Below are positions 1,274 to 18,451 of a stretch of DNA of 20,000 bases, piece after piece. The notes under the pieces are model-generated. The model was given only the letters and a program-made list of their open reading frames with translations, made no database searches and was not told the origin of the DNA. Each line of letters starts with the position of its first letter. Position 1 is the stretch's first letter. Source of the stretch: Chiloscyllium plagiosum. Its lineage: Eukaryota. The position numbers and the translations under genes were made by a program. The DNA is taken from NCBI RefSeq assembly GCF_004010195.1, contig NC_057757.1, positions 1,337,526-1,357,525 of the forward strand, written 5' to 3'.

Positions 1274-1411
1274 CGAAAGTGCGGTGCTGGAATAGTACAG
1301 CTGGTCAGGCAGCATCCGAGGAGCAGGAGAATTGACATTTCACCAGGTATGATGAAGCTCTTCACCATTCTTGACTCTGATCTCCAGCATCTGCAGTCCT
1401 CACTTTCTCCC
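1274..1411. mobile_element. Short PLE-derived insertion (two pieces of the element 3' end in opposite orientation) with 16-bp TSD
   Basis: gtatgttgatggatgt (1258-1273) and gtatattgatggatgt (1412-1427) flank it with 1 mismatch. The left part is the reverse complement of the same sequence type as 2970-3025; the right part resembles 3030-3070. Confidence 0.88.
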
Positions 1412-2268
1412 GTATATTGATGGATGTTGTTTATGTGGACTTCATAAAGTCTCACAGAAGAGACTGTTAGCTAAAGTGGAAGCCCCAAAAAATTGAGGGC
1501 AAATTACTGACATGGGATAGAAAATTGGTTGAGTGGCAGGAAGCAGAGAGTTGGAATAATGGGTAAGTACTCAAATTGCCAGGACATGAGGAGTGCTGTC
1601 AATCATTCACAATATTCATAAATTACTTTGATAATATTATTAAAAATCAAATATCCAAATTTTCTGATGACCTAAAATTGGGCAGTAATTGTAGACAGTG
1701 TTGATGGCGGCATAAAATTACAACAGGATATACACAGATTCGGTGAATTTGCAAAGTTGTGGCAGATGGATTTTAATAGAAGCAAATGTGAGGTTATCCA
1801 TTTTGGACTGGAAAAGAATGGATTGGGGCATTAATTTGGAAGGCAGAAAGTTAAATGCAGTGGATGTTCAATAAGATTTGTGAGTTCAGTTGACTAGCTC
1901 TTTAAAATGCCATGAACAAGGATAGAAAATAGTCAAGAAGGCTAATGGCATGCTGGCTTCCATACCATTCCCCCAGACCTCCCCCTCACTGAGGACGAAC
2001 AATCAGTCCTCAGCAAAGGACTCACCTTCATCCCGCTTTGCCCACGCATCAATGAATTTAATACACGCTGTGACGTCGAACACTTCTTCCGCCGCCTCCG
2101 CCTCTGAGCTTACTTTTACAATCAGTACTCCCGCCCACCTTCCGAGGACCCCTTTGTCCACCTCCAACACACTCCATCCACCTCGACACCCCGCGCTGGC
2201 CTATTACCCGCCTTCGACCTCTTCATTTCCAACTGCCACCAAGACATTAACGGCCTCAACCTCCCTCC

Positions 2269-2620
2269 NNNNNNNNNNNNNNNNNNNNNNNNNNNNNNNN
2301 NNNNNNNNNNNNNNNNNNNNNNNNNNNNNNNNNNNNNNNNNNNNNNNNNNNNNNNNNNNNNNNNNNNNNNNNNNNNNNNNNNNNNNNNNNNNNNNNNNNN
2401 NNNNNNNNNNNNNNNNNNNNNNNNNNNNNNNNNNNNNNNNNNNNNNNNNNNNNNNNNNNNNNNNNNNNNNNNNNNNNNNNNNNNNNNNNNNNNNNNNNNN
2501 NNNNNNNNNNNNNNNNNNNNNNNNNNNNNNNNNNNNNNNNNNNNNNNNNNNNNNNNNNNNNNNNNNNNNNNNNNNNNNNNNNNNNNNNNNNNNNNNNNNN
2601 NNNNNNNNNNNNNNNNNNNN
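2269..2620. other. Assembly gap (352 N)
   Basis: Run of N inside the PLE. Confidence 1.
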
Positions 2621-2940
2621 TCCCTCACCACCAGACGCCTGGAGAAAGAACACCTCATCTTCTGCCTCGGAACACTTCAACCCCGGGGCATCAATGTGGA
2701 CTTCACCAGTTTCCTCATTCCCCCTTCCCCTACCTCACCCCAGTTCCAAACTTTCAGCTCAGCACTGTCCCCATGACTTGTCTTACCTGCCTATCTTCTT
2801 TTCCACTTATCCACTCCACCCTCCTCCCTGACCTATCACCTCCATCCCCTCCCCCACTCACCTATTGTACTCTATGCTACTTTCTCCCCAACCCCACCCT
2901 CCTCTCATTTATCTCTCCACTCTGCAGGCACTCTGCCTCT

Positions 2941-2976
2941 ATTCCTGATGAAGGGCTTTTGCCCGAAAAGTCGATT
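2941..2976 (+). ncRNA. Minimal type I hammerhead ribozyme motif (family 1), stem III palindrome mutated
   Basis: attc CTGATGA A GGGC TTTT GCCC GAAA AGTC gatt. Core and stem II are intact; AAGT replaces the palindromic ACGT. Confidence 0.75.
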
Positions 2977-3683
2977 TTCCTGCTCCTCGGATGCTGCCTG
3001 AACTGCTGTGCTTTTCCAGCACCACTCTAATCTCGAATCTGGTTTCCAGCATTTGCAGTCCTTGTTTTTACCTCCATATCTAAAGGGCTGGATTTATGAA
3101 TGCAGATATTATGCTGCAGTTATACAACACACTAGTTAGACCCCACTTAAAGTACAATGAGCAGATCTTGGCACAACACCATAAGAAGGATACTTTGGCC
3201 TAGAGGGAGTTCAACGCAGGTTTGCAAGGATGTTACCTGGACTTCAGTGGTTACATTATGAGGAGGGATTAGGCAAATTAGGCCTTTATTCTCTAGAATT
3301 AAGAAGGTTAATTGGTGATCTAATTGAGGTGTTCAGGATATTAGCAGGGAAAGACAGGGTGGATAAAGATAAACTATTGCCACTGGTTGAAGATTCTAGA
3401 AATGGGGGCATAGTCTAAGAATTAAAGCCAGGCCATTCAGGAGAGATGTTAGAAAGTACTTCTACACACAAGGAGCACACAGGAGGTTTGGAACCCTCTT
3501 CCTCAAATGGTGGTCAATGCTCACTCAGTTGTTAAATTCCGACTTAGACAATTTTTTTTATTAAGCAAGGATTATGGCCCCAAGCCAGGCACATGGTGTT
3601 AGGCCACAGATCAGCCTTGATCTGACGGAATGGCAGAGTTGGCGCAAGGGGCTGCATGGTTTCCTCCTGTTCCTATACTCCTA

Positions 3684-4310
3684 GTCAGGAAGGCTAATAG
3701 TGTTGGCATTGGAGAGTAAGAGTAGGGGAGCAACTGTACAATGTGCTGATGAAACTACATCTGGAGCACCGCGAGCAGTTTTGCTCCCCTTATTTAAGGA
3801 AAAATATCATTTCATTGGAGGCAGTTCATAGAAGGCTCACGAGGGTGACCATTTGCATGGGGTAGAGTCTTATGAACAAAGGCTAAACAGGTTGGGACTC
3901 AATTTACTGGAAATTCCAAGAATGAGAGATGATCTCATTGAAATATATCAGATTCATAAGCGCTTGACAAGGTCAATGCTGACAGGATGTTTCCCCTCAT
4001 GGGAGGGTCTTGGACAAGAGGACACTGTCTCAGAATAAATGGGCACCAATTTCAGCCTGAGATGAGGAGGAATTTCTTCTCTGAAAGAGTTGGAACTCCT
4101 TGCCAGAGAGAGCTGTGGTGGCAGAGTCTTTGTGTATATTTAAGGCTGAGATAGAGAGATTCTTGATCAATGGAGGAAATAAGGGTTATGAGGAAAATGC
4201 AGGAAAGTGGGTGTGAGGCATGTCAGATCAGCCATGAGCCTATTGAAAGGCAGAGCAGGCTTGATGGGTCAAACCAAGTGCTCTGTTGCTATTTTAATGA
4301 TCTGATGGCC
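3684..4310 (+). mobile_element. CR1 copy A, 3' continuation to tail
   Basis: Resumes VRKAN where 1-970 stops (KDLEVIVH..QMQ). Has SYEQRLNRLGLNLLEIPRMRDDLIEIY and a CR1 3' tail near 4225-4305. Confidence 0.82.
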
Positions 4311-4314
4311 TTTT

Positions 4315-4425
4315 GATAGGAGATTTGAATATTCAGAAGGAATTTCTTAAGGGTTGGCATTAAGAAGTTGTTTCCATTTGTGTGAATACAACAACTAAGG
4401 CACTATAAATATCAGGTAGTCATTA
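4315..4425 (+). mobile_element. Older CR1 3' fragment C, left piece (continues at 5587)
   Basis: Colinear with 10025-10130, e.g. the shared gttgtttccatttgtgtgaataca. Confidence 0.75.
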
Positions 4426-5382
4426 GGGTTTGAGATATAAGGAGAGGCTGGATAAACCATGACTTACAAAGAACATTCCAGCACTGGAAGAGGCCCTTTG
4501 GCCCTCCAAGCCCATGCCGATCCAGATCCTCTATCTAAACCTGCCACCTATTTTCTAAGGATCTGTATCCCTCTGCTCCCTGCCCATTCATGTATCTGTC
4601 TAGATACATCTTAAATGACGCTATCGTTCCCGCCCCTACCACCTCCACTGGCAACGCATTCCAGGCCCCCACCAGCCTCTGCCTGAAGAACTTTGCACAT
4701 ATATTTCCCCCTAAACCTTTCCCCTCTCACTTTGAACTCGTGACCCCTAGTAATTGACTCCTCCACTCTGGGAAAAAGTTTCTTCTATCCAACCTCTCAT
4801 GATTTTGTAGGCCTCAATCAGGTCCCCCCTCAGCTTCCTTGATTCCAATGAAAATAATCCTAATCTACTCAACCTCTCCTATAGCTAGCACCCTCCATAC
4901 CAGGCAACATCCTGGTGAACCTCCTCTGCACCCTCTCTAAAACATCCACATCCTTTTGGTAATGTGGCGACCAGAACTGTCTGCAGTATACCTTTTTTCA
5001 CTGGAGAATAGGAGGCCGTGGGGTGACCTTATGGAAGTTTATAAAATCATGAGGGGCATAGATAAAGCCTTAGGGTTGGGGAGTTTAAACCTAGGAGGTA
5101 TAATTTTATGGTGAGAGGAGAATGATTTAAAGGGAATCTGAGGGGCAGCTTTTTCACACAGAGGGTGGTTCATATGTGGAGTAAACTGCCAGAGGAAGTC
5201 GTTGATGCAGATGCAGTTAAAACATTTAAAAGACATTTGGACGGGTACATGAATAGGAAAGGTTTGGAAGGATAGGGCCAAATGCAAGCAAATGGACTAG
5301 TTTAGCTTGCGAAACTTGGTTGTTATGGACAAGTTGAACCAAAGGGCCTGTTTCTGTGCTGTATGATTCTATGACTCAATGA
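4426..5382 (+). mobile_element. CR1 3' fragment D, interrupted at 4461-4990
   Basis: GLRYKERLDK (4426-4456) continues as LFSLENRRPWGDLMEVYKIMRGIDK (from about 4992). Tail gggcctgtttctgtgctgtatgattctatgactc. Confidence 0.85.
4461..4990 (-). mobile_element. CR1 3' fragment E, antisense, nested in D
   Basis: The reverse complement reads tactgcagacagttctggtcgccacattaccaaaaggatgtggatg (YCRQFWSPHYQKDVD) through to a CR1 tail (ggccaaagggcctcttccagtgctgg). Confidence 0.88.
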
Positions 5383-5573
5383 TTTGGAGATGCTGGTGTT
5401 GGACTGGGGTGTACAAAGTTAAAAATCACACACCACCAGGTTATAGTCCAACAGGTTTAATTTGAAGCACTAGCTTTCGGAGCGCTGCTCCTTCATCAGG
5501 AGCGATGCTCTGAAAACTAGTGCTTCCAATTAAACCTGTTGGACTATAACCTGATGTTGTGTGATTTTTAACT
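5383..5573. mobile_element. PLE-derived fold-back element (family 2) with perfect 13-bp TSD
   Basis: Inverted arms 5416-5491 and 5499-5573. tatgactcaatga occurs at 5370-5382 and 5574-5586. An extra 33 nt at the left is the probable element 3' terminus on the minus strand. Confidence 0.88.
5467..5500 (-). ncRNA. Minimal type I hammerhead ribozyme motif (family 2)
   Basis: Minus strand: c CTGATGA A GGAGC AGC GCTCC GAAA GCTA gtgc. Core intact with palindromic AGCT; predicted cleavage between 5471 and 5470. The 5' strand of stem I is clipped by the inversion junction. Confidence 0.78.
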
Positions 5574-5586
5574 TATGACTCAATGA

Positions 5587-5848
5587 GTAATATATCCCTT
5601 ACAGAATTCAGGAGAAATGTCTTTACTCAGACAGTTATGAGAATGTGGAACTTGTTCTCACAGGCAGTGACGAATATTGATGCATTTAAAGGTGAAGTTG
5701 GACATGCATGCGAGGGTAAAAGAATGAGAAAGATCTGCTGATCAGGTGAAATGAACAGGAGGGGTGGAAGGAGGATTGTGTGCTGCAGAAACACCAGCAC
5801 AGAGCAAGTGGGCAACATGGCCTCATTCCGAGATGCAAATGACTTTCT
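5587..5848 (+). mobile_element. Older CR1 3' fragment C, right piece and tail
   Basis: ttcaggagaaatgtctttactcagacagttatgagaatgtggaac (FRRNVFTQTVMRMWN), colinear with 10130-10380. Confidence 0.78.
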
Positions 5849-6254
5849 GAGCAGACTTTCAAGGGTGGGCCCATTTGGCCCCTCAAACCTCTTCCAGATC
5901 ACAGGAAACTCCACTCACCTGTCTGTCATTCCATATCTTCTTGATGCCCCCACCTGACAAAGTGGTGACAAGTCCCACTAGGCCACCATCAATAGACACA
6001 TAGCAACAGTGGGGCGGGGCAGGGTGTGGAGGGGGTGAACCAAGTCTGAAGTGCAGCAACGTGACGTGTTGGTTGCTGTTTACTGAACCTTGCACAAGGA
6101 CCTCTGTGACACACCCAGTAAACTGCACATGGTGATTCCAATCTGATCAAAGATCTAGTCAAGGACATTCTTGACTGCTCCACTTAACTGAAAATGTTGG
6201 TGCTTATTGTGTTTCTTTTGTCCCCACACCCGAATTCATGAGACAAGGTAAGAC

Positions 6255-6427
6255 GCAGAAACAGAAACTGAAATTACTGGAGAAATTCAGCAAGTCTGGT
6301 ACATAGATTTTGACTACCTGAAAGATTAACACAACTTTCTCTCCATAGACACAGTCAGACTTGCTGTGTGTCTCCAGCATTTTCTGCTTCTGTTCTTTAA
6401 CATCTCCAGCCGTACTTTGTTTTATTT
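6255..6427. mobile_element. Old PLE-like fold-back element (family 3)
   Basis: ctggagaaattcagcaagtctgg (6277-6299) is inverted relative to cagacttgctgtgtgtctccag (6356-6378). The element is absent from the duplicated copy near 10580. Confidence 0.65.
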
Positions 6428-6521
6428 TAAGATAACATTCAGTTGACTGACAGAAAAGTTTGCAAAACTCAGTTTTTTTCTAGCTGGTTATATGTTAAGT
6501 ATGAATTCAATTTAAGTGATA

Positions 6522-6607
6522 TCAGAAACACAGAACTCTGGAGAAACTCAGCAGATCAGGTCGCATCTGTGACAGAATTTGTTTTGAATCCAACTCTTCT
6601 TCAGAAC
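6522..6607 (-). mobile_element. Old family-3 fragment ending at a degenerate hammerhead 5' core
   Basis: ctggagaaactcagcagatcagg...; the minus strand starts agttCTGAAGAagagt. It lies at the position corresponding to 10662-10765. Confidence 0.6.
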
Positions 6608-7175
6608 TGCATTCTTTTTTAATACCGTTGACAAAGGGGAAAGAGAAATCTCTTGGTTTTATTCTCATTGTTTTTGTTCCACTTTATATCTGCTTGGGGA
6701 CCAATAATTTTATTTTTAAAGTAAGTTAGCAGCCGAGAGAGTTGCAAGGTTGCAGGATAGCTCAGTTTTTAAGTTCTGCAAGAGCTGAACTCGTGGTGTT
6801 CTGAATTGCTGATAATGAAAACCGGCAGGTTTTCCAACAGCATTGGCAGCCTCATTGCTGATGAGCCTCACTAGCTATCATTGGTTGAGTTGGGCACTTG
6901 GCATTCTACAGAACGGCCACACCCTGAAACTGTCAGTGAAGTTACCTGAAAGTGTGTTGGCAGTAGATTTGATGACAACTTCCAATAGGGTTTCGAACAT
7001 ATACTTGAAAAGGAAGAATTTGCAGAGCTGTGAAAAGAACAGTGAAGTTAGATTTATTGGATAGGTCATTCAACTGGCATGAACAGGAAGGATCAAACAT
7101 TGGGCAATAAGATTTCATATAAATTCACACAGACATGTATTTTTTATCCAATACACATATCTATTTCATGTATAT

Positions 7176-7382
7176 AGAACATAGGACATGACAGCGCAGG
7201 ACAGGCCCTTCGGCCCTCGATGTTGCGCCGACCTGTGGAACCAATCTGAAGCTCATCTATCCTAAACTATTCCATTCCCATCCATATATTTATCCAATGA
7301 CCATTTAAATGCCCTCTACTACTATTGAGTCTTCTACTATTGCAGGTAATGCGTTTCATTCCCCACTACTCTCTGAGTTAAC
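7176..7382 (-). mobile_element. CR1 3' tail fragment
   Basis: agaacataggacatgacagcgcaggacaggcccttcggccc is the reverse complement of a CR1 tail. Possible TSD tgtatat at 7169-7175 / 7383-7389. Confidence 0.8.
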
Positions 7383-7512
7383 TGTATATTGATATTACCC
7401 TATTTTTACATATATAACATTATTTATAGGTTCAAATATTAAACTAGAAGTAATTTATCTTTGACAATCATGCTTAATTGATTTAATTGAGTTTTTAAAA
7501 CAAATAAGTGCG

Positions 7513-7645
7513 TATGCAGGAGATCTGAAATAAAAACAAATTGCTTGTGAAATGTTTTGGTTCGGTAACTTGAAATGTTACCTCTGCTTCCTTCCCACAG
7601 ATGCTGCCGGATCTGCTGAGTTTCACCGGCAATTTCTGTTTTTGA
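7513..7645. mobile_element. Old family-3 PLE-like fragment with a short inverted left arm
   Basis: tgaaatgttacctctgcttccttcccacagatgctgccggatctgctgagtttcaccggcaatttctgttttt matches the arms at 6255-6427 and 10662-10838. Confidence 0.65.
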
Positions 7646-7649
7646 TTGG

Positions 7650-8190
7650 GTTTTTGGATGAGTAACAAAGAGAGTTGATCATGGTAGTGCCATTAATGTG
7701 ATCTGCACGGATTCAGAAAAGATGTTTGATAAAGTGCCAGATCACAGACACGTTCGCAAATTAGCAGCTCCTTGGAATAAAAGGGACAATGACAGCATGA
7801 CTGAGCAACAGGAAGTACAGTAGCGGGGATTGGGTATTTGTCAGACTGCAGGGTTGTACACACAACAATTTCCCAGGCATTGCCAATAGGACCACTGCCT
7901 TCCTTGATTAATGCTCCTGACTTGCACAGAGGGTGGGCTTTCAACATTTGCCTATGACACAAAACCTTGCGAACTCTGAAGAGAAGTGATAGATTTCAAG
8001 AAGGCACAGGATGATGGGTTTGGAAGACAGATGGCAGATTAAATTTAATTCTGAGAAGTGTAAAGTGATGCATTTTGATAACAAGTACGAAGAAGGGCAT
8101 TTTAAAATAAAGAATCCAATTGTAAAGGTTGCGCAGATAGACCTAAGCATAAACCATTGAAGCAGACAGCTTAGGTTGAGAAAGTGGATA
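7650..8190 (+). mobile_element. Highly decayed CR1 RT fragment
   Basis: VTKRVDHGSAINVICTDSEKMFDKVPD from about 7662, and DRWQIKFNSEKCKVMHF at about 8026-8076. Confidence 0.78.
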
Positions 8191-8197
8191 ATTAGGC

Positions 8198-8262
8198 AGT
8201 TAACTCTTTCTGTCTCCACGGAACTGCCAGACCCACTGAATTTCTCCAGCGCTTTGTTTTAA
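8198..8262 (+). mobile_element. Old family-3 PLE-like 3' fragment
   Basis: gttaactctttctgtctccacggaactgccagacccactgaatttctccagcgctttgtttt. Confidence 0.6.
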
Positions 8263-8739
8263 GAGTGATCTACTCAGTTGTCTGAAACCATGACGGAGAA
8301 AGTTCCGAACCACCTTCTCAGAGTAATTAAGGATGAGCGATAAATCCAAGGAAAGAGATGAATGGCTGTCTGGTAGTGAGTAATGTAAAGCATTGTTCTG
8401 TGACATCATGGTGAAATAACTGACCTGTCAGTAACCATCCTTCAGTTTAAAATGCCAGTTTCCAACAGCATCCGCAGCACGGCTAGTGGAAATAGCTCTG
8501 GATAAATGTATCTTCGGAAAAGCTGACGTGAATCATTCCCAGGACTTGTTAAGTTGGCATGCATGAATACTATGTGATACCAGAAATGGAGAGCCAGTTG
8601 TTCAGCTCGGAATGGAATAGAAGTGCATGTGACATCTTAGGAAGGTGTAATTAAATAGTCACAATATATAAAGATTCAATGTCAACTTTTAAAAAAAAGG
8701 GTGGTGGGAGGTTAATATATTTAACTGTAATAAGTCAGC

Positions 8740-8866
8740 CCACAGCACGTGGACTGCAGCGATTCAAGATGGCAGCTAACCACCACCTTCTCAAGAGGCA
8801 AACAGGGATGGTCTATTAATGCTGGCCAGCCAGCAACACCCAAATCCCACAAATGAATAAAGAAAA
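8740..8866 (+). mobile_element. 3' tail of the LINE family seen at 18605-19215
   Basis: gtggactgcagcgattcaagatggcagct is identical at 8749-8777 and 19120-19148; ends atgaataaagaaaa. Confidence 0.85.
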
Positions 8867-9069
8867 GTGAGGGAATCTGTATATGTGCAACAATGTGAAC
8901 AAAATAATGTACATTGACAACAACGTCAATAGGACTTCTGTAACATGCCAGTGGTTTACCATCTGGTCCCTCCAATTCGAGGCTACTGAGCTGAATTACT
9001 CACCCAAAGGATCAAACCTTTTCCCACTGTATAGAATCCCAATGGATCAAACCTCCTCCCAATCACTCT

Positions 9070-9225
9070 CAAACGGATACCCTGGTACAATATTTATTCC
9101 TCAGATAGTATCACTAACAACAGATTATTTGATTGTCTATGGGAGTTTGCTACACAGATACTGGCTCTTACAACAGGAGACTGATGACTCTTCAAATTCA
9201 CTTCATTCCTTGGCATATCTTAAAT
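9070..9225 (+). mobile_element. DeuSINE (SacSINE1-like) core fragment, old
   Basis: cctggtacaatatttattcctcagatagtatcactaacaacagattatttg...tatgggagtttgctacacagatactggct resembles the Deu domain. Confidence 0.6.
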
Positions 9226-9959
9226 GCTGTAAAACCACTATCGGAATTATTTCTCATTTATGTTCTTCTCTGAAGAACTACTTTTTTTTTACCATACTTT
9301 GTGTTAATTCTTCTTTGAATTCTACATTGACGTTTCTACCAGAGTTTACCAAATAAATTAATCTGTAATTACCATTCTGCTAATAGTGGTGGTGCTGTTG
9401 TCCCACAGTATTGCCTCTGTCTGCAACTCATTGGAGAGAGAGAGAGATACTCCACACAATTTATAGTGAATGCCACCAAAAGATGTACAAGGAATGAAGG
9501 AAAATGATGTCATGGCCAGACAATGATACTGCCATGTACTGGAAGCTAGTTTAATGGCTTTTTTGGCAGCTGGAGGTGTGGGATATCAAGTGCAGTTACC
9601 AAATTCCCCTGGGCACAAGTTCCATGGCTCACAGGTAGTACAGTGTCCAGGTGCTCCAACTCACCACTCTTTGGCGCCAGCCTCCTTACCCTGAGCTGGT
9701 GACACCAGTATATGCATGCGCGGAGGCTTCCTGCGGGTTCTCGTTGCCAGCCAATGTCACGTCCCGCAAGTGGAGAGGGCACTCAGGACTAGTTATCATA
9801 GAGCAACCCTCCCACCACACAAGCTTTCAGTTCTGTGATGTATGTCGAGTCTCCTCAAACTCAGTCCAAACACAACCCAACTCCTGAGTGAAGTGCGAAC
9901 CTAGCAGATCGCACAATGTGAGATTAAATCAAACAAGCTTAGTCTGGTTTGCAGTTCTA

Positions 9960-10380
9960 CATATCAGGAAAGGCTGAACAGGCTGACATTCTTTTCTGCA
10001 ATAAAGTGAAGGCTGAGGGTTAAAGGATAGAAGACGTTAATATTCAGAAGGGGTTTTCACAGGGTTGGCGTAAAGACGTTGTTTCCATTTGTGTGAATAC
10101 AGTAGCTATGACACTACAAATATCAGGCACTAATAAATCCCTTGGGGGATTCAGGAGAAACATATTTACTCAGAACGTGGAACTTGCTCCCACAGGGAGT
10201 CACTGAGGTGCCTCATGTTGACGCATTTAATGGGGAAGATGGATAAGCACATGAGGGCAAAAGGGTGAGAAGGACATGCTGATGGGGTGAGGTCAAAGGT
10301 GGGAAGAGGTGGAGGGGATGGAAGGAGCAGAAACACCAGCACAGAGCAGAGGCATGATTTCAAGCTGCCAATATCTTTCT
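9960..10380 (+). mobile_element. Older CR1 3' fragment (paralogue of fragment C)
   Basis: ERLNRLTFFS at 9968, then colinear with 4315-4425 plus 5587-5848. Confidence 0.78.
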
Positions 10381-10765
10381 GAGCAGATTGTCATTTGGCC
10401 CCTTCAGACTTCTTACAGATTTGTCATCTTTCTTTCATTCGGAATTTTCTTACTGCCTTCACCCAACAGAAATGGCTGAACCAGTTCAAATATGCGGAAA
10501 GACCTGGGCAAGGACATACCAATCCGCTGCAGTGAGCTTAAAATGTCAGTGCTTATTGATTTTTTTTTACAACTGAATGAATAAGATAACCCTGCAGAAA
10601 ATCCCACGTGAGATCTTTCTGGCTGGTTATATATTAAGTATGGATTCAATTTAAATGGTTTTGAAACAAATACGGAGAACGCTGCAGGAAGTCAGCAGGT
10701 CAGGCACCATTTGTGGAGACAGAAACAGAGTTAATGTTTCGAGTCTGCAATACTCTTCTTCAGAG
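10025..10765 (+). repeat. Second copy of an old direct duplication (first copy about 4315-6607, interrupted)
   Basis: Non-TE-looking flanks align: 6149-6209 vs 10498-10558 gives 45/61 ungapped; 6477-6518 vs 10616-10657 gives 38/42; 5916-5965 aligns with 10424-10474. Confidence 0.85.
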
Positions 10766-10850
10766 TAATTAATGTCTTTCTCTCCACAGATGCAGCCAGA
10801 CCTGCTGACTTCATGCAATGTGTTTTGTATTTGTTTCAGACTTTTAGTAG
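10662..10850. mobile_element. Family-3 PLE-like fold-back element
   Basis: tgaaacaaatac (10662-10673) pairs with gtatttgtttca (10827-10838); gaagtcagcaggtc pairs with gacctgctgacttc. Confidence 0.75.
10728..10765 (-). ncRNA. Decayed minimal hammerhead motif (family 3)
   Basis: Minus strand: CTGAAGA A GAGT ATTGCAG ACTC GAAA CATT aactc. ACAT is consistent with a CpG-decayed ACGT. Confidence 0.62.
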
Positions 10851-11089
10851 CTGCCTTTCTTTAAGAGTTATCATTTTTATTTTCAAATTCCCTTATTCCT
10901 CCAGCCCACCTTGCCCACCATCCTACTCCTGGAGATTTCAGAACTCTCCACCCAATCTCTGTGTTCTGAAAGGGCTAGTCATTGTCCTTAAACACATCAG
11001 CAATGCTGTTGAAGGACATATCACAGCTCAAATTTACCTCCGAAAAGCATCAGCAGAAGAGGGTGCTGGAATGTAGGGAGGAAGAGGAA

Positions 11090-11425
11090 AAGACTTGCAT
11101 CACAATTTCAGGATGTCCCAAAACACTTTACAGTCAATGAAATACTTCTTATTGTTGAAACAGGAAATTTAGCAGCTAGTTTGTGCATAGCTCCCACAAA
11201 CAGCAATGAGATAACGATCAGGTTATCTTGTTTTTTTTGGTGATGTTGACATGAGAGTCATGCTGGTAGATCCCTGGATTAATATCTCATTTAAAAAATA
11301 CAACACTGAAACACTCCACTATTGCACTGGGTGAGTCAACCTGGATTATGTGGTGAAGTCTCTGGAGTAAGACTTGAACCCACATGTCTGAATTGGGTAA
11401 GAGAGAGTGCTACCTGCTAAATCAT
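11090..11425 (-). mobile_element. DeuSINE (SacSINE1-like), near full length, decayed
   Basis: Pol III B-box gtgggttcaagtc (reverse complement of 11371-11383), Deu core ctcccacaaacagcaatgagataacgatcaggttatc, tail gacttgcat...caggatgtcccaaa. Confidence 0.72.
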
Positions 11426-12147
11426 AGTTGATAGAGGAAGTTTTCTTACATTTAGACTTATTTGTCGTGGAGATAGATGCTTGACAAGATTTTTCTTTTT
11501 ATTGAGGTGTTGCAGAGTTGCCGTTTTGGGGATTGGTTCAGTTGGTCATGGTTGGTGTCATAATCTCAGTGGATTCTCCTGAGCTACAGAGCATTTAGGC
11601 TGGTTGGCTGTTGGATTTGCACATGCTACTAGGCATGTTAGAGAGCCCTAGGGTATGGAATGGAAATAAGTAAAGCAGAGACTAGGTCCCTGAACAAGGA
11701 GCTTGTGTGGGCCAGAATATTGGCTGAGGGTCAAAATTATGCTTGTGTTTTGGCATCTTCTCCCAGTGATCATGAATAGTCTTACTTGGGTGGGAATGCT
11801 GTTTAAATATCTGTAAAGAATGGGGTCCAAGTGACAAAACCTCCCAATCAGGAAAGTTGTCATGTGCATTGGTCAAATGGGTAAATCTGATTGTTGAGCA
11901 AGGTGGATCTGAGGTGATTGATAACTAAGAGAGAAGGGGGCAACTAATCCTGAGGAGGATCAAGCACTGAACTAAGATCTCTGTAATACTGAAAAAAATG
12001 CTTGGGAGTTTACTCATGCAGCAGGGCCCTTAATGACTCTAATTTATTCATTTACATTTGCTGACAAGTATCATGTTTGAAAGCTGTCAACGTTCACCTT
12101 AAACTCACACAAGAACAGCAGTTTGGTTAGGGTCAGCAACTCTGTTG

Positions 12148-12303
12148 ATCCCCAGGGCATCAATGTGGACTTCAACAGCTTCCTCATTTCCCCTTCCCCC
12201 ACCTCATCTTATTCCTGATGAAGGGCTTTTGCCCGAAACGTCAATTTTGCTGCTCGTCGGATGCTGCCTGAACTGCTGTGCTCTTCCAGCACCACTGATC
12301 CTG
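12148..12303 (+). mobile_element. Family-1 PLE 3' fragment with internal deletion and 10-bp TSD
   Basis: Matches 2681-2737 joined to about 2938-3030. aactctgttg occurs at 12138-12147 and 12304-12313. Confidence 0.9.
12211..12246 (+). ncRNA. Minimal type I hammerhead ribozyme motif (family 1), intact core and palindrome
   Basis: attc CTGATGA(12215-12221) A GGGC TTTT GCCC GAAA CGTC(12242) aatt. The first stem I pair is lost (A at 12243 where the 2973 copy has G). Confidence 0.8.
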
Positions 12304-12609
12304 AACTCTGTTGGTCACCTACCTGCCACCCACTGCTCCCATTCTTGCAATTGGCTAGCTGGCCTGCCCAGCTTAGGAGGCCTCACATCCCTCCTGCACT
12401 AAGTGAACCTTGTTACCAACTGGATGTTTACAGCTCCCTCTCCTATACACTAATTGTCATTATGCAACTGGTAATGAAAAGCCTTCAACGAAGAGAAAAT
12501 CAACACATTTGTACAATCTGAATGGCATTTTCCCTTCCTAGGTCAGGCTCACAGCTACTTCTGTGATGGACACTTGCAATAGTCACTTGATGGTTGTCCT
12601 ACTCCTACT

Positions 12610-12680
12610 TAGGATCTTACAGTACAGGGGAGGCCATTCGATCCACTGTGCCTGTGCTGGCTCGTTAAAAGCCAGTTGTA
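12610..12680 (-). mobile_element. CR1 tail remnant
   Basis: tacagtacaggggaggccattcgatccactgtgcctgtgctggctc. Confidence 0.55.
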
Positions 12681-12929
12681 CCAGCAAACAAACATGAGTC
12701 AGCACCTTTACAGGGGACATGAATTCTGTGGAACAATAAATAATGAATCTGACAAAGCCCATGCCACCCCATTTCATCTGTACATTATAGATCATTAACT
12801 GGGATTATCAGCACATCTAAATTGTTCATTCTCACAATAAATTTTTCAGAATTGAATGTGATGACAATGGCCTTCAGTTCTACAGCCTCATGAACAAAAT
12901 TCCCAGCCACTTCAAAGCAGCAACAACAG

Positions 12930-13125
12930 ACATGTTAGGCAAACGGCTAAACATTTGAACAGGTCAGTTTGAAGGGAGTTGTAAAGTGAAATAGAGAAAG
13001 GATAGAGAAGTTTAAGGAGTAAATTTTAGAGTCTAGTTGAAGGGATAGCTGCCAGTAGTGACGGAGGGGGATTGGATTAAAGTTCAGAATTGGAGGAGAA
13101 ATCTCCAGTACAGGGCTGGGGTACG
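12930..13125 (-). mobile_element. Very old LINE 3' remnant (L2-like)
   Basis: Purine-rich gaagggagttgtaaagtgaaatagagaaagg...aaattttagagtctagttgaagggatagctgcca resembles antisense L2 3' ends; weak. Confidence 0.4.
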
Positions 13126-13224
13126 ATAGACCACACAGCTATTTTGTCTGTGTAAGCTTCCACAAGTTTATGAATGGACTCACCAGTGGACAAAAATTAT
13201 TTTAAATAAGGGAGACTTGGAAAA

Positions 13225-13340
13225 TGAAACCCAAAACAGAAAAATCTGTACACACTCAGCAGGTTGGTCTGTCCTGTGAAGAGAAAAACAACGAAGTTAG
13301 TGTTCGGGACAATGTCTCTCGCTTTCCCAGAAACCTGACG
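13225..13340 (-). mobile_element. Very old family-3 PLE-like fragment
   Basis: aaaacagaaaaatctgtacacactcagcaggttggtctgtcctgtgaagagaaaaac..gttagtgttc parallels 10664-10740. Confidence 0.5.
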
Positions 13341-13594
13341 CTTAAGTGCTGAACACAAACCAATTTACAGCAAACTTAGTACTTTCAAAGTTGCAATGGG
13401 ACAGTGCACTTCCACATGTCATGCCCTATCAAACAACAAGACTTTAGAGATGTTTATTAAGGAGTAAGTATTAATCAGGACAAAGGAGAGAAAACCTCTG
13501 TTCCTCTTGAGTAATGCCATTTTGTGTCCCTCTGAGATGGCAGATTAGTTTTACAGCTAATTTTTAAGATAACGTCTCTGACTGTGCGGCATTT

Positions 13595-13867
13595 CTTTGG
13601 ATTTGGGTACGTATGTGAATGGGAAAGGTTTGGAGGGATATGGGCAAAAGTGAGGACAGAGTTTAGATCAGAGTGGTGCTGGAAAAGCACAGCAGGTCAG
13701 GCAGCAACCGAGGAGCAGGAAAATCGACATTTCAGGCAAAAGCCCTTCATCAGGAATATGGGCCAAGCACAGGAAGGTGAGACTAGTTTAGTTTGGGAAC
13801 ATGGTCAGTGTGGACTGGTTGGACCGAAGGGTTTGTGTCCATGCTGTATGACTCTATGATTCTATAA
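13595..13867 (+). mobile_element. CR1 3' tail, interrupted by a PLE fragment
   Basis: gaatgggaaaggtttggagggatatgggc...gactagtttagtttggg...gctgtatgactctatgattctat, the same type as 5250-5380. Confidence 0.85.
13646..13755 (-). mobile_element. Family-1 PLE 3' fragment starting at the hammerhead, 8-bp TSD
   Basis: Minus strand: tc CTGATGA A GGGC TTTT GCCT GAAA TGTC gattttcctgctcctcgg... atatgggc occurs at 13638-13645 and 13756-13763. Confidence 0.88.
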
Positions 13868-14394
13868 GTTTCTGGAGTGCAGTTTGAATGCACAAACCAC
13901 TGCCTCAGAGCATGGGAGTGCAACCCACTGAGCAAAAATCCACACACTTTGTGCCTGTGTGGAATGGATGAGGCATGACTGTGATTCCACCCACAGTATG
14001 ATAGCCTGCTGACAGACATCCAGCCCAATTCATCCTTCCAAGAGAGTTTTGGGAAGAAAACTGTCAGAACTGTGCACTGTCCATTTGTAAATGGATCCTG
14101 GGCTATTGGACTGAAGCAGCTGAGGATGACTGCTTTCATTTGAAATCTGCACAGGGTCTGTTTCTGGTGATGGTCACTGATTAATGCTCTTGAGAAGAAA
14201 TGCAAAGGGATCACCCTTCACCACCAGAGGGATTTAGGTTAATGGGATTAATATATTATCTGAGATTATCTAAATAAATGCAGGCCACTGATCAAAAAGG
14301 GGAACTTCCTACATCTGTGCCACATAGTAACACGTAACTATCATCAGTAATGAAGGTCAATGTCTGACCATATCCATCAGTTTTCAAACGTGGT

Positions 14395-14670
14395 GATAGG
14401 TGATTTTCAGTTGAGACATTAAATCAAGGCATTCTTTAAAGACTGTTTTCTCCAGCCAATTGCAGGAGGAATTCTTCCAATGCCCTGGACCAATTTTATC
14501 ACTCGACTAATATTACAACACAAAAAATATAGGTGGCTGTGGGCTATTTCTCTCATCCGCTGTTTGTGTGACCTTGCTGCGTGCTAAATAATTGCCATGT
14601 TTGTCTACATAATTGTTATTGTTAGACCTGAAACATTCTGCAATGTCCCTTAGGCGTGGAAGGCTTTGTG
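14395..14670 (+). mobile_element. DeuSINE core and tail, old
   Basis: ttttcagttgagacattaaatcaagg...ccctggaccaattttatcactc...gctgtttgtgtgaccttgctgcgtgctaaataattgcc. Confidence 0.62.
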
Positions 14671-15446
14671 CCTTGTGGTCTGACAAGTTCAAAATAACTT
14701 TTAAATTCAAAACGCTGCAGCTGCATTAAATGTACTTCTCAGAACATACTATTGTTTGGTACCTTGATTGAAGTGACTGGTTAGGTATTCTGGGTCCATA
14801 TACACGGACGTACTGTTTATAAATAAACCATACAAGTACTAAATCTTCTTTTTAGTCAGATGATCTGCCCGGAGGGATGAGGTTTGGGGACACAGCAGAA
14901 TCCCATTTGAGGGGTGTCATTGTTTATTGAAACAGGGAGATTTTCTGTTTCCTGTTTGAAAACAGAACAGGTGAAATTGGCTTTCACATGCAGTTTGGTT
15001 TGCTGTTTCTCAGCTTGTGCAACCACTGTCCAAGTCAAACTTATAGACAGAAAAGGACAGCACCCACCCCACCTCAGAAACTCACAAGGCAGGAGGGACA
15101 TGAAAGTGATTATTGTGTTCGCAGGCAAACACAAGAACTTGTGAAAGGGGAATGGAGACAACATCTGGGACTCATTCCGAAACAACACTTGCATAATTAC
15201 ATTCCAAACATAGAGATGGCAGACTGATTGATAACACTGTCGTTCACTACTACGATAGAATGCCCTGCTACTTTACTCAGTTTGCCTCTGTTGACTCTTT
15301 CTTCCTTATTTTGCATGCTCAATATTCTTTCTTTACCTATTTAAATGAAAGGACATTGGAGTAAATGCAAGTTTTTTTTTTAAAAAAAAAGGTTTATAAC
15401 TGCCTGTCCAGCTAGTGAGTTATTTTGCCTTGGAGGATTGAACTTC

Positions 15447-15761
15447 GGATGGCACGGTGGATCAGTGGTTAGCACTGCTGCCTCACAGCGCCAGGGACCC
15501 AGGTTCAATCCCAACCTCAAAAGACTGTCCGCGCGGAGTTTGCACATTCTCCCCGTGTCTGCGTGGGTTTCCTCCGGGTGCTCCGGTTTCCTTCCACAAT
15601 TCAAACATTTGCAGGTCAGGTTAATCAGCCACGCTAAATTGCTCGTAGTGTTAGGTACATTAGTTGGAGGGAAATGGGTCTGGGTGGGTTACTCTTCAGA
15701 GGATTGGTGTGGACTTGTTGGGCCGAAGGGCCTGTTTCCACACTGTAGGGAATCTAATCTA
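15447..15761 (+). mobile_element. HE1-type V-SINE, full length
   Basis: tRNA-derived head (tggatcagtggttagc; ggttcaatccc), V-domain tctccccgtgtctgcgtgggtttcctccgggtgctccggtttcc, CR1-like tail gggccgaagggcctgtttcc...atctaatcta. Confidence 0.93.
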
Positions 15762-15864
15762 CTTAAGTTGACCCACCTTTGCACCTCATGTCAGACTCTC
15801 AAAGTTTCAGAATTTTGGAATTTCCCTACAAAATCTTAAAATCTACAAGTGTCTGGAGTCAAGC

Positions 15865-15985
15865 CTGTTGGATAAGGGGGTAATTATAATCAAAAGGTAG
15901 GAGAATGAAGTTGAGACACAGACCGGTCACCATCTAATTGAATGACAGAACAGGCTCCTGGGACTGAATGGCCTCCACCTTTGTC
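15865..15985 (+). mobile_element. Old CR1 tail remnant
   Basis: gaatgaagttgagacacagaccggtcaccatctaattgaatgacagaacaggctcctgggactgaatggcctcc. Confidence 0.6.
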
Positions 15986-16014
15986 TCAAAGCCGAAGGTC
16001 GGAAATTAGCTGGC

Positions 16015-16031
16015 TGCCAGTAGGGGGCATT
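16015..16031 (+). promoter_or_regulatory. Candidate CTCF site
   Basis: tgCCAGTAGGGGGCAtt fits the CCASYAGRKGGCR core. Motif match only. Confidence 0.45.
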
Positions 16032-16044
16032 TGTGAGCAGATAA

Positions 16045-16250
16045 AAACAGGTATATGCGCAGGATCACACAGCAATAAGCTGAGGAAGAACAAGGGTGAA
16101 GTCCCTGATGTCACTGCTGACAGTTATCCAATAGCAATAAGAAACAGATTAACTGCTTGTTGTTATTTCTTTTGTGAGAACTTGCTGTACAGACACTAGC
16201 TGCTGTATTTTCTACACTGCACTTCAGAAACAGCTCTAAAGTGTTATGGA
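16045..16250 (+). mobile_element. DeuSINE core fragment, old
   Basis: gaagaacaagggtgaagtccctgatgtc...aaacagattaactg...ttttgtgagaacttgctgtacagacactagctgctgtatttt. Confidence 0.55.
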
Positions 16251-16299
16251 GGTTACTCTTCTTATTTTGCCCCCGAACTTTCATTAAAAATGCCACTGA

Positions 16300-16390
16300 A
16301 TAGGAGCTGTAAGATGTAAGACAGACAAGGGCCATTCAGCCCATCAAGCTGGCTCAGCCAGTCAATGAGATCATGGTTTACCTGATAATT
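16300..16390 (-). mobile_element. CR1 tail remnant
   Basis: ggccattcagcccatcaagctggctcagccagtcaatgagatcatgg. Confidence 0.65.
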
Positions 16391-16771
16391 CTTAAAAGAC
16401 AGGGCATTAGTGCATCATTCCTACCTCACTTACCGTTGGTAAATTTACCTAAAGTTACGAAGAAGAGCTTGAAATCAGTGTTGCCTGCGACACTGATCCC
16501 TTTTTTCCTCATTCTTCTGCATTTTGTCAGAGGCATTCACAATAAACATTGGCCTTGCTGGAAATGTTCACATCCCATGAAAGAATCATTAATAAAGGGC
16601 TCAATCTTAAGTTGCAATTCACCACTGCAGGACGGCAAACTAATGGTCTACACACTCTTTCACCATAAGTAGCAGCAACTGGTTCTGGGAATAAGACTGA
16701 CTGTGGGACAAGATAAAGAAAATCTTCAACAGCTGCCAGCAGCCCCCTCCCCCTCCTCATCCACTCACTAT

Positions 16772-17360
16772 CTTAGAAACATACAGCATGGAGCAAGATA
16801 TTCAGTCCGTCGGATATGTATCTGCCCCCTTGGAATGAGCTATCCAATTAGTTTCACCACACCCCATAGACCTGTCCCTTATTCACTCAATTCCCTTTTG
16901 AAAGTGCCTTTTAAATTTGCTTCCACTGCCCTTTCAGATCACAACTACGCCCCGCCTGAAAGAAAGTTTCTTTGCGCCTCTGTTTCTCTCCTCAGTAATC
17001 TTAAATGGGTTCCTGTAGTTATTGGGCAAAAGTGAGGACTGGAGATGCTGGAGATTAGAGTAAAGTGTGTGGTTCTGGAAAAGCACAGCAGGTCAGGCAG
17101 CATCCGAGGAGCAGGAGAATTGACGTTTCAGACATACATCGGTCAGGATGTATGTCCTGACGAAGGGTTTTTGCTCAAAATGTCAATTCTCCTGCTCCTC
17201 AGATGCTGCCTGACCTGCTGTACTTTTCCAGCACCACACCCTGTAGTTACTGACACTTCTTGGCAGTGGAAACAGTTTCAGCCTACCCGGTCTTAACAAA
17301 TTTTTTGCTTCCTGCAAACCCGATTTCATCTCCTCCAACCTTCTCTATCCTAAGGAAAAC
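16772..17360 (-). mobile_element. Old CR1 3' fragment, interrupted by the 17025-17239 hairpin
   Basis: tagaaacatacagcatggagcaagatattcagtcc (tail), aattcccttttgaaagt..gcttccactgccctttcag, continuing ctgacacttcttggcagtggaaacagtttc after the insert. Confidence 0.6.
17025..17239. mobile_element. Family-1 PLE fold-back element with 13-bp TSD and degenerate hammerhead
   Basis: Arms 17067-17128 and about 17177-17239. cctgtagttattg (17012-17024) and cctgtagttactg (17240-17252) flank it. CTGACGA A GGGT TTTT GCTC AAAA TGTC lies at 17157-17184. Confidence 0.9.
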
Positions 17361-18212: not shown

Positions 18213-18233
18213 TAAATACAGAGGATTGAGACT

Positions 18234-18444
18234 GGGTGGCTCAGTGGTTAGCACTGCTGCCTCAAAGCGCCGGGGGGGGGGGGGAACAGGGTTTGATTCC
18301 AACCTCAGGTGACTATTTGTGTACAGTTTGCGTGTTTTTCCCATATCTGCGTGGGTTTGCTCCAGAGGTTTGGTGGATTGGCCATGCTAAATTGCCCATA
18401 GTGGCCAGGGATATGTTGGCTATGGGTTAGCCATGGGAAATGCT
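18234..18444 (+). mobile_element. HE1-type V-SINE, internally deleted and 3'-truncated
   Basis: ggtggctcagtggttagcactgctgcctcaaagcgcc..., tctgcgtgggtttgctcc, ggattggccatgctaaattgccc. Has an expanded poly-G run. Confidence 0.88.
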
Positions 18445-18451
18445 AGGCCAA

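Follow-up and report, generated by a model that had tools for sequence, protein, structure and literature searches.

Minimal hammerhead ribozyme motifs in probable end-pieces of Penelope-like elements in a 20-kb stretch of a shark genome

Does a 20,000-nucleotide stretch of the Chiloscyllium plagiosum genome (NC_057757.1, positions 1,337,526 to 1,357,525; hereafter the window, to which all coordinates refer) carry true hammerhead ribozyme sequences, and if so, what brought them there and do they still act? A first-pass annotation had listed six minimal hammerhead motifs from three families, plus a remnant. Our analysis favours, with a probability of about 0.88, minimal type I hammerheads in the 3' end-pieces of Penelope-like elements (PLEs), present here as truncated, mutated or inverted copies that are likely inert.

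An independent descriptor recovered the six motifs and the remnant at 6604 (-) at the same coordinates and on the same strands, and the predicted cuts after 12242 (+) and 5471 (-) agree with hammerhead numbering. Under a strict descriptor (exact CTGANGA, exact GAAA and a stem II of at least 4 bp) we found five motifs in the window (2945, 12215, 13753, 5499 and 10763), whereas 500 dinucleotide shuffles gave 0.052 on average and never more than 2; five in 19.6 kb is a high density compared with the families of PMC4209133. The core CUGANGA...GAAA is exact at five of the seven loci, 17157 and 6604 having G12>A. Both the extra A after A9 and a pairable stem II (wobbles counted) occur at all seven, as had been claimed. 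The G10.1-C11.1 pair is G-C at six loci and G-U at 13753, and an NUH cut site follows 15.1-16.1 at six. The 13 Rfam matches (E up to 10) included no hammerhead. A loose descriptor also returns several unrelated matches, as would be expected if the motifs were chance matches, but the strict count refutes this explanation and the motif copies have homologous tails in common; we give it practically no credence. The seven motifs are thus confirmed, at the level of sequence, as real minimal hammerhead-ribozyme sequences.

The link to PLEs comes from a family-1 copy in LINE-like sequence (1964..3072, +), which consists of ORF remnants, a pyrimidine-rich 3' region, a hammerhead and a tail to ~3069. 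An N-terminal ORF remnant with one stop (1964-2266) is followed by an assembly gap of 352 N, where the middle of the ORF is missing, and then by a C-terminal remnant (2621-2713). An RT protein of Chiloscyllium punctatum shows 84% identity to the piece at 1970-2266, and there are full-length relatives, with both RVT_1 and GIY-YIG, that match 1964-2263 as well as the last codons (2630-2713), which lie ~230 nt upstream of the 2945 motif; Pfam gave no match on the two short ORF pieces. The assignment of the motifs to the PLE-type minimal type I hammerheads is therefore upheld, family 1 lying directly 3' of PLE ORF remnants and the architecture fitting the consensus of PMC4209133; it is in family 1 only that a hammerhead is found 3' of an RT and GIY-YIG ORF. 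Among the 73 relatives listed (at least 780 aa), all 63 with a GIY-YIG-like motif have a CX2-5CXXC linker before GIY-YIG. Such a zinc-finger linker is typical of the Neptune clade as defined in PMC8557442 and is lacking in the Penelope/Poseidon clade; it is also present in Nematis elements, and the window copy itself lacks the linker region. The ORF remnant looks like a Neptune-like RT/GIY-YIG.

The hammerhead of this copy (2941..2976, +; C3 at 2945) keeps both core and stem II intact, with a stem I of 2 bp, U-U and 1 bp and an A at 15.2, where most family-1 copies show C. The flanks of the copy share only a 6-bp repeat, no more than chance. A second family-1 end-piece (12148..12303, +) comprises the last ORF codons, an internal deletion, a hammerhead with C3 at 12215 and a short tail, within a 10-bp target duplication (12138-12147 / 12304-12313); its palindrome is ACGT, and the closing pair of stem I is mismatched (C2.1-A1.1). 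The mini copy at 13646..13758 (-) starts ~4-5 nt before C3 (13753) and has a target duplication (13634-13645 / 13752-13763) that overlaps the front end of the element. Two C>T changes give its hammerhead G-U wobbles, with which it is the only copy able to pair stems I, II and an intermolecular stem III. At 17022..17239 lies a head-to-head hairpin insertion with a 10-bp target duplication (17012-17021 / 17240-17249): the right arm carries the hammerhead with C3 at 17157 (+), and the left arm consists of a tail in inverted orientation with an extension of ~40 bp. Absent from the earlier list was an inverted insertion at 1274..1411, with a rearranged motif remnant near 1365 (-) and a 16-bp target duplication with one mismatch (1258-1273 / 1412-1427).

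Family 2 is present as one copy, a hairpin insertion with 77-bp arms (5383..5573, -), an extension on the left arm only and a perfect 13-bp target duplication (5370-5382 / 5574-5586). In its hammerhead (C3 at 5499) the core is intact, stem II has 5 bp and the palindrome is AGCT, but the inverted arm occupies the place of the 5' strand of stem I. Since this single copy has no ORF link, it is the architecture that argues for a PLE origin of family 2. Family 3 also forms a hairpin insertion (10647..10853, -), in which the hammerhead (C3 at 10763) retains its core and stem II, the palindrome has decayed to ACAT and an inverted arm again stands in for the 5' strand of stem I; a target duplication was looked for here and none was found. 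A family-3 remnant at 6505..6604 (-) has lost U16.1 in addition to G12>A. Tail homology revealed four more family-3 insertions without an intact core, likewise additional to the earlier list: two inverted arms at 6248..6412 and single remnants at 7515..7654 (+), 8192..8271 (+; beginning near the cut-site region) and 13214..13308 (-). In the four family-3 insertions tested, no target duplication exceeded the chance level. Family 3 is linked to PLEs by its tail, which is homologous to that of family 1 (score 37, reached by none of 500 shuffles); family 2 is unrelated to either. We therefore count two lineages, and the idea of three separate waves is weakened: family 2 does stand apart, but families 1 and 3 are related by their tails. 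With a likeness between hairpin arms of 55/72, against 59/65 in family 1 and 54/57 in family 2, family 3 looks older.

Stem I had been left unchecked in the earlier, sequence-only reading. Its two closing pairs are both possible only at 2945 and 13753, two of the seven loci, and no copy has every hammerhead feature in Watson-Crick form. The family-1 stem (2 bp, U-U, 1 bp) occurs at two of the four family-1 loci, and position 1.1 is A in four of six family-1 arms. The 5' strand is lost in family 2; for family 3, a 4-bp pairing that appears only by cross-comparing two copies (the 5' flank of 6604 with the 3' strand of 10763) suggests what stem I may have been. The 4-nt palindrome described as stem III stands at 12215 (ACGT) and 5499 (AGCT), but 15.1-16.1 is no longer self-complementary at the other five loci (AAGT, ATGT, ATGT, ACAT and ACAA). 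Because position 2969 is C in 76% and 73% of contigs from two organisms and in 82% of RNA reads, the family-1 majority palindrome is ACGT; in family 3 we infer one. A single lesion per copy, claimed earlier for most, is what we see at just 2945 and 12215: there are two C>T changes at 13753 and a G12>A at both 17157 and 6604, and stem I lacks its 5' strand at 5499 and 10763. Given the stem I mismatch at 12215 and the loss at 5499, both loci proposed for cleavage tests would be poor substrates.

Motifs from elsewhere bear on the architecture. In 109 distinct metagenome motifs, stem II reaches at least 4 bp in 77 (shuffle mean 7.8) and stem I at least 3 bp in 54 (permutation mean 11.5), and an inverted arm lies in front at 18 of 106 loci; the hammerhead architecture shows covariation in other genomes as well. 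Inspection by eye picked out no shark-type family in the 109, so that this set tests the architecture and not the families of the window. The family-1 pattern had no match in viral contigs.

Target duplications of 10-16 bp flank five of the ten insertions tested, with scores of 9-13; of 288 random box pairs, five score 9 or more and none above 10. Half of the six motifs (5499, 10763 and 17157) are centres of head-to-head hairpin insertions, where the inverted arm takes the place of the front strand of stem I. Such long, stable hairpins (z = -7 to -17), three of them with sub-threshold Rfam microRNA matches, could in principle be DNA-transposon MITEs or microRNA precursors whose hammerhead look is incidental. 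This is largely refuted by the arms, which have the same sequence as single-arm, ORF-linked PLE ends; in addition, the arms are asymmetric, all three duplication-bounded hairpins having a tail or extension of 30-40 bp on one arm only, duplication length varies from 10 to 16 bp, and every Rfam match falls far below the gathering score, which leaves this explanation a very slim chance. We also think it quite improbable that some loci are active host-level ribozymes cutting their own transcripts, even with five exact cores, with 13753 forming all three stems if wobbles count, and with abundant family-1 sequence in RNA (2,759 reads in run X21). A dimer partner is required, yet same-family copies lie kilobases apart; in models with 260 nt of context, forcing a hammerhead-like fold would cost 3-31 kcal/mol, and the stem I closing pairs have a predicted probability of at most 0.012 at all seven loci. 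Activity in vitro is low even for intact dimers (PMC4209133), and RNA read ends do not pile up at the cut site, although this is a weak test. The 5499 motif, moreover, is buried within its 77-bp hairpin. The copies in the window are predicted to be mostly inactive, through damage or hairpin folding.

A further rival sees the short copies as a self-propagating non-autonomous family, SINE- or retrozyme-like, whose short RNA, beginning immediately ahead of the ribozyme, is transcribed in its own right and mobilised by PLE protein. Several observations fit: contig depth rises at 2944 by 2- to 9-fold (X1) and 3- to 14-fold (X10) over the 2638-2926 bins, although depth is not copy number; 5' ends are concentrated at 2941-2943; 14 and 11 contigs contain head-to-tail joints 3025>2941; and a preprint (bioRxiv 10.64898/2026.07.22.740005) derives animal retrozymes from PLE pLTRs. 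However, the window contains no tandem array, two of the four listed family-1 copies extend upstream into the ORF, and RNA reads are about equal on both strands, 95% of them continuing into unlike sequence, with no start pile-up found, which fits passive read-through. We consider this rival unlikely, though worth keeping in mind.

Our preferred reading, end-pieces left by PLEs, can be followed at the boundaries of copies in contigs. The best-supported loose ends are at 2941-2943 (5') and at 3025, 3033 and 3062 (3'), which makes two favoured 3' ends, 3025/3033 and 3062, and the cut site (2972/2973) is absent among the 18 best-supported rows, besides which there are 1504 weaker ones. At 2941 the consensus of the loose ends finishes with CCTC, as does the element's own upstream sequence; part of this peak is therefore probably a one-base-deletion subfamily, with the true boundary a few bases further up. 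As family-1 copies mostly start just before the core and not at the cut site, they were likely copied from uncut RNA. At one well-supported junction, from 2943 to 2975 (7 and 3 contigs), the microhomology coincides exactly with the two pairs of stem I, and the cut site is a possible starting point of the inverted arm. Splicing was rejected as the source of joints at 2941, the skipped ends being TC..CT, not GT..AG, in the joints shown. Because family-2 and family-3 hairpins turn at the N2.1-C3-U4 / 10.1-10.2 point, we considered a mini-hairpin (N2.1-C3-U4 / extra A, G10.1, N10.2) as a selected fold-back primer; this too was rejected, 2.1-10.2 being Watson-Crick in 17 of 65 good outside motifs, about as expected by chance.

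By analogy with other PLEs, the motif of an active parent would cleave weakly, as a dimer via the ACGT/AGCT palindrome and probably with help from the element's protein. Once the parent's GIY-YIG nuclease had nicked the target, its RT would set out from either of two points, ~50 or 90-95 nt behind the cut site, read through the uncut ribozyme and usually stop no more than ~10 nt ahead of C3. The resulting DNA may be joined either to the target, giving a solo copy of 85-130 bp, or to a second, oppositely oriented copy, giving a hairpin whose extension sits on a single arm; the motif would later be eroded by CpG decay. A speculative extension, to which we attach little confidence, is that the hammerhead fold is a hand-over point of reverse transcription more than a cutter: copying would end at its front edge, and stem I complementarity, carried into two cDNAs primed from opposite target strands, would seal head-to-head hairpins. 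If this were true, shark genomes would preserve PLE second-strand synthesis, and the use of cut versus uncut templates, in a natural record of very large size. More than 100,000 contigs per run match one family end, so that junction positions could serve to test how reverse transcription of PLEs comes to an end and whether the inserted copy is ever shaped by ribozyme cleavage.

How do these motifs compare with known systems? Cervera and De la Pena (2014; PMC4209133) describe a minimal hammerhead consensus in metazoan PLE pseudo-LTRs, with solos, opposite-strand pairs and weak dimer cleavage; dimer cleavage is also attributed to Lunse et al., as cited in PMC6765202. The window motifs have in common with that consensus the type I form, the CUGANGA core, the extra base between 9 and 10.1, the G10.1-C11.1 pair, a palindromic 15.2-16.2, the absence of loop III and a putative short stem I, and likewise occur as several families per genome, mostly solos with some opposite-strand pairs. 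The extra A and the palindrome are thus standard for PLE minimal hammerheads, and not surprising. Acropora Neptune, in Fig. S3 of that paper, has the 4-bp GGGC stem II and CGUC cut site of family 1; cartilaginous fish are not among the examples of this figure. Stem I is typically 3-5 bp there, with 2-bp cases listed, and is weaker in family 1. The Poseidon PLE of Anolis carolinensis, PAc (Frangieh et al. 2024; PMC11167929), uses two RT start sites to make its tail, with unprocessed RNA as the main substrate in vitro and a protein-assisted ribozyme. Our copies resemble it in the pLTR hammerhead, the presumed two RT starts with optional tail, the likely copying from uncut RNA and the lack of RNA-seq ends at the cut site; unlike them, PAc has an ORF that begins inside the ribozyme, and behind the window motifs a long ORF of this kind was not observed. 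Inverted truncated PLE copies with a tail at one end are described in PMC8557442. Animal non-LTR retrozymes (PMC7229834; bioRxiv 10.64898/2026.07.22.740005), reported by the preprint in its one chondrichthyan genome, are similarly non-coding type I hammerhead repeats from PLE ends, but form tandem arrays with a ribozyme per unit, whereas the window copies are solos or head-to-head hairpins. In our literature searches, hammerheads of shark PLEs were not the subject of any paper; the motif class, the dimer model and the inverted layout are already published, and our finding mainly extends them to shark families.

Six minimal hammerhead motifs and a remnant at 6604 (-), described in the first-pass annotation, were all recovered by our own descriptor scan of both strands. 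Named by the position of C3, they comprise 2945 (+), 12215 (+), 13753 (-) and 17157 (+) in family 1, 5499 (-) in family 2, and 10763 (-) with the remnant in family 3. A strict descriptor (exact core, stem II 4 bp or longer) matched five times in the whole window (2945, 12215, 13753, 5499 and 10763), whereas 500 dinucleotide shuffles gave 0.052 matches on average and never more than 2; the motifs are thus real and were rightly recognised as hammerheads. An Rfam search of the window (E up to 10) returned no hammerhead among its matches. The claimed extra A after A9 is present in all seven motifs, the G10.1-C11.1 pair and the NUH cut site in six of the seven each, and a self-complementary 15.1-16.1 is retained in two. 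The cuts predicted after 12242 and after 5471 were also correctly numbered.

The deciding feature for the folding of a locus is stem I, which had been overlooked. Among the seven loci, both closing pairs of stem I are possible only at 2945 and 13753; at 12215, A1.1 faces C2.1 at the closing position. In the supplement of PMC4209133, loss of the stem I closing pair serves as the mutant control. The motifs at 5499, 10763 and 17157 occupy the centre of long inverted repeats (hairpin folding z of -17, -7 and -13, respectively), where the inverted arm has supplanted the 5' strand of stem I. With 260 nt of context, a monomer model, which is blind to dimers, gave a closing-pair probability of at most 0.012 at all seven loci and a penalty of 3 to 31 kcal/mol for an imposed hammerhead-like fold. 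None of the seven copies is Watson-Crick throughout core, stem II, palindrome and stem I; 13753 is the sole one able to pair at every stem, G-U counted. The loci in the window are likely inert. The centre of the family-1 hairpin (17133-17158) holds an extra 10-bp hairpin whose sequence is unlike both the element and the flanks, and stem II of its left arm has been deleted via a short microhomology.

The 2945 motif forms the end of an insertion that starts with an ORF remnant (1964-2266), 84% identical to an RT-domain protein of Chiloscyllium punctatum and with full-length relatives carrying RVT_1 and GIY-YIG domains. The Chiloscyllium match is the one direct indication of the host, which would be a shark and probably a near relative of bamboo sharks. 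All nine relatives tried matched 1964-2263, and the last residues of four of them matched 2630-2713; the family-1 ribozyme therefore follows the end of a Penelope-like element (PLE) ORF at a distance of about 230 nt. Among 73 listed relatives of at least 780 aa, 63 have a GIY-YIG-like motif, in every case preceded by a CX2-5CXXC linker, a mark of Neptune and Nematis according to PMC8557442. This sole ORF-bearing PLE copy is interrupted by an assembly gap (2269-2620, 352 N), in which about 1.8 kb of the ORF would be lost were the copy whole. Ahead of the motif, a long pyrimidine-rich run (2713-2927 (+)), with its final CAG (2925-2927) 17 nt before C3, looks by sequence like a splice acceptor; the Penelope intron of Drosophila virilis has its 3' end at the front of stem I (PMC4209133).

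Five of ten insertions tested carry target duplications, which are 10-16 bp long and score 9-13; among 288 random box pairs, a score of 9 was reached by five, 10 by one and above 10 by none. The other five insertions, including the long family-1 copy and all four family-3 insertions tested, had no duplication above chance. The tails of families 1 and 3 share homology (score 37, reached in 0 of 500 shuffles), and the family-2 tail showed similarity to neither. PLE ends, in 12 intervals drawn by hand, make up about 12% of the called bases (2,360 of 19,648). Stacked, decayed LINE fragments (1-1273, 1412-1963, 3073-5370 and 13600-13870) are host sequence for four PLE-end insertions; an RVT_1 match in LINE-like 135-500 (E 5e-5) was below the cut-off. 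Two related tRNA-like SINE copies (repeat D9; 15447-15760 and 18232-18450) presumably resemble the shark HE1/V-SINE type.

The end of family 1 (2621-3110) was compared with four of 24 listed runs at a threshold of 82% likeness, matching 110,216 and 103,282 contigs of two coded organisms (X1 and X10) and 2,759 RNA reads (X21); the fourth run, X22, yielded no matching reads. Position 2969 is C in 76% and 73% of contigs and 82% of RNA reads; the palindrome of the family is therefore ACGT, with copy 2945 mutated. Depth at 2944-2960 exceeds that of the upstream bins (2638 to 2926) 2-9x in X1 and 3-14x in X10, and the top 5' loose ends fall at 2941-2943, 2-4 nt ahead of C3. Since the 2941 peak is probably in part a one-base-deletion subfamily, we put the 5' boundary no more than about 10 nt ahead of C3. 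Another loose-end peak, at 2978, is a subfamily clip, its loose part being ribozyme sequence. The top 3' ends are 3025, 3033 and 3062, and head-to-tail joining, 3025 onto 2941, was seen in 14 and 11 contigs. The cut site (2972/2973) was absent among the best 18 loose-end rows (1504 weaker rows besides; X1 counted in part). The RNA reads come from both strands and 95% continue into unlike sequence; no pile-up of starts or ends was listed. Being a fragmented poly(A) single-cell library, X21 tests for cleavage only weakly. A loop II variant, TTAT at 2959, makes up 30-36% of RNA reads vs 5-6% of contig depth, and may belong to a subfamily that is younger or more transcribed.

Anatomy, the family-1 ORF link, duplications, hairpins with one-sided extension and boundary clusters are observed for these elements. 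By analogy with other PLEs, the parent ribozyme would act weakly, as a dimer through its palindrome (PMC4209133), and would be assisted by the element protein; reverse transcription would begin at two internal sites, yielding an optional tail, on a template of mainly uncut RNA (PMC11167929). Two start sites and an uncut template are consistent with copies that retain the whole ribozyme and have two preferred ends.

Candidates for the stop of copying ahead of the ribozyme are a local transcription start, a bound protein, or two cDNAs annealing through stem I. If the hammerhead fold were the hand-over point of reverse transcription, copying would stop at its front edge and stem I complementarity would seal two cDNAs into head-to-head hairpins. 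Strand-switch joints do connect 2941-2945 to 2975-2997, and the two letters shared at joint 2943-2975 (7 and 3 contigs) are the stem I pairs. However, the 2941-2978 joint is commoner (11 and 15 contigs, 5 reads) and lies one base off the stem I diagonal, from which further joints deviate more. We consider this hand-over reading unlikely, with a probability of roughly one in five. A literature search, thin for subscription journals, found no published work on ribozyme-guided inversion junctions.

A core-only pattern, with the first stem II pair alone fixed, was scanned against one of 64 parts of a metagenome collection and yielded 124 loci (109 distinct motifs). Stem II reaches at least 4 bp in 77 of the 109 (shuffle mean 7.8, maximum 17) and stem I at least 3 bp in 54 (permutation mean 11.5, maximum 21), counts that are not independent because many motifs are related to each other. 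Of the 106 loci whose flank was long enough, 18 show an inverted arm ahead of the motif. Architecture and hairpin layout are therefore general, not peculiar to this genome. Some metagenome contigs (loci L006, L046/L047, L037/L038, L094/L095 and L103/L104) carry two minimal hammerheads nearby, some on opposite strands.

Retrozymes are described in one chondrichthyan (bioRxiv 10.64898/2026.07.22.740005), and the species list in Fig. S3 of PMC4209133 includes no cartilaginous fish. Our search, with subscription journals thinly covered, found no published work on shark PLE hammerheads; the supplements of the bioRxiv study may name shark families. For PLE hammerheads, PMC4209133 already describes the extra base, G10.1-C11.1 and the palindrome, the presence of several families per genome, and both solo copies and opposite-strand pairs. 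The motif class is known from the PLEs of other animals, and the motifs in the window are added shark members.
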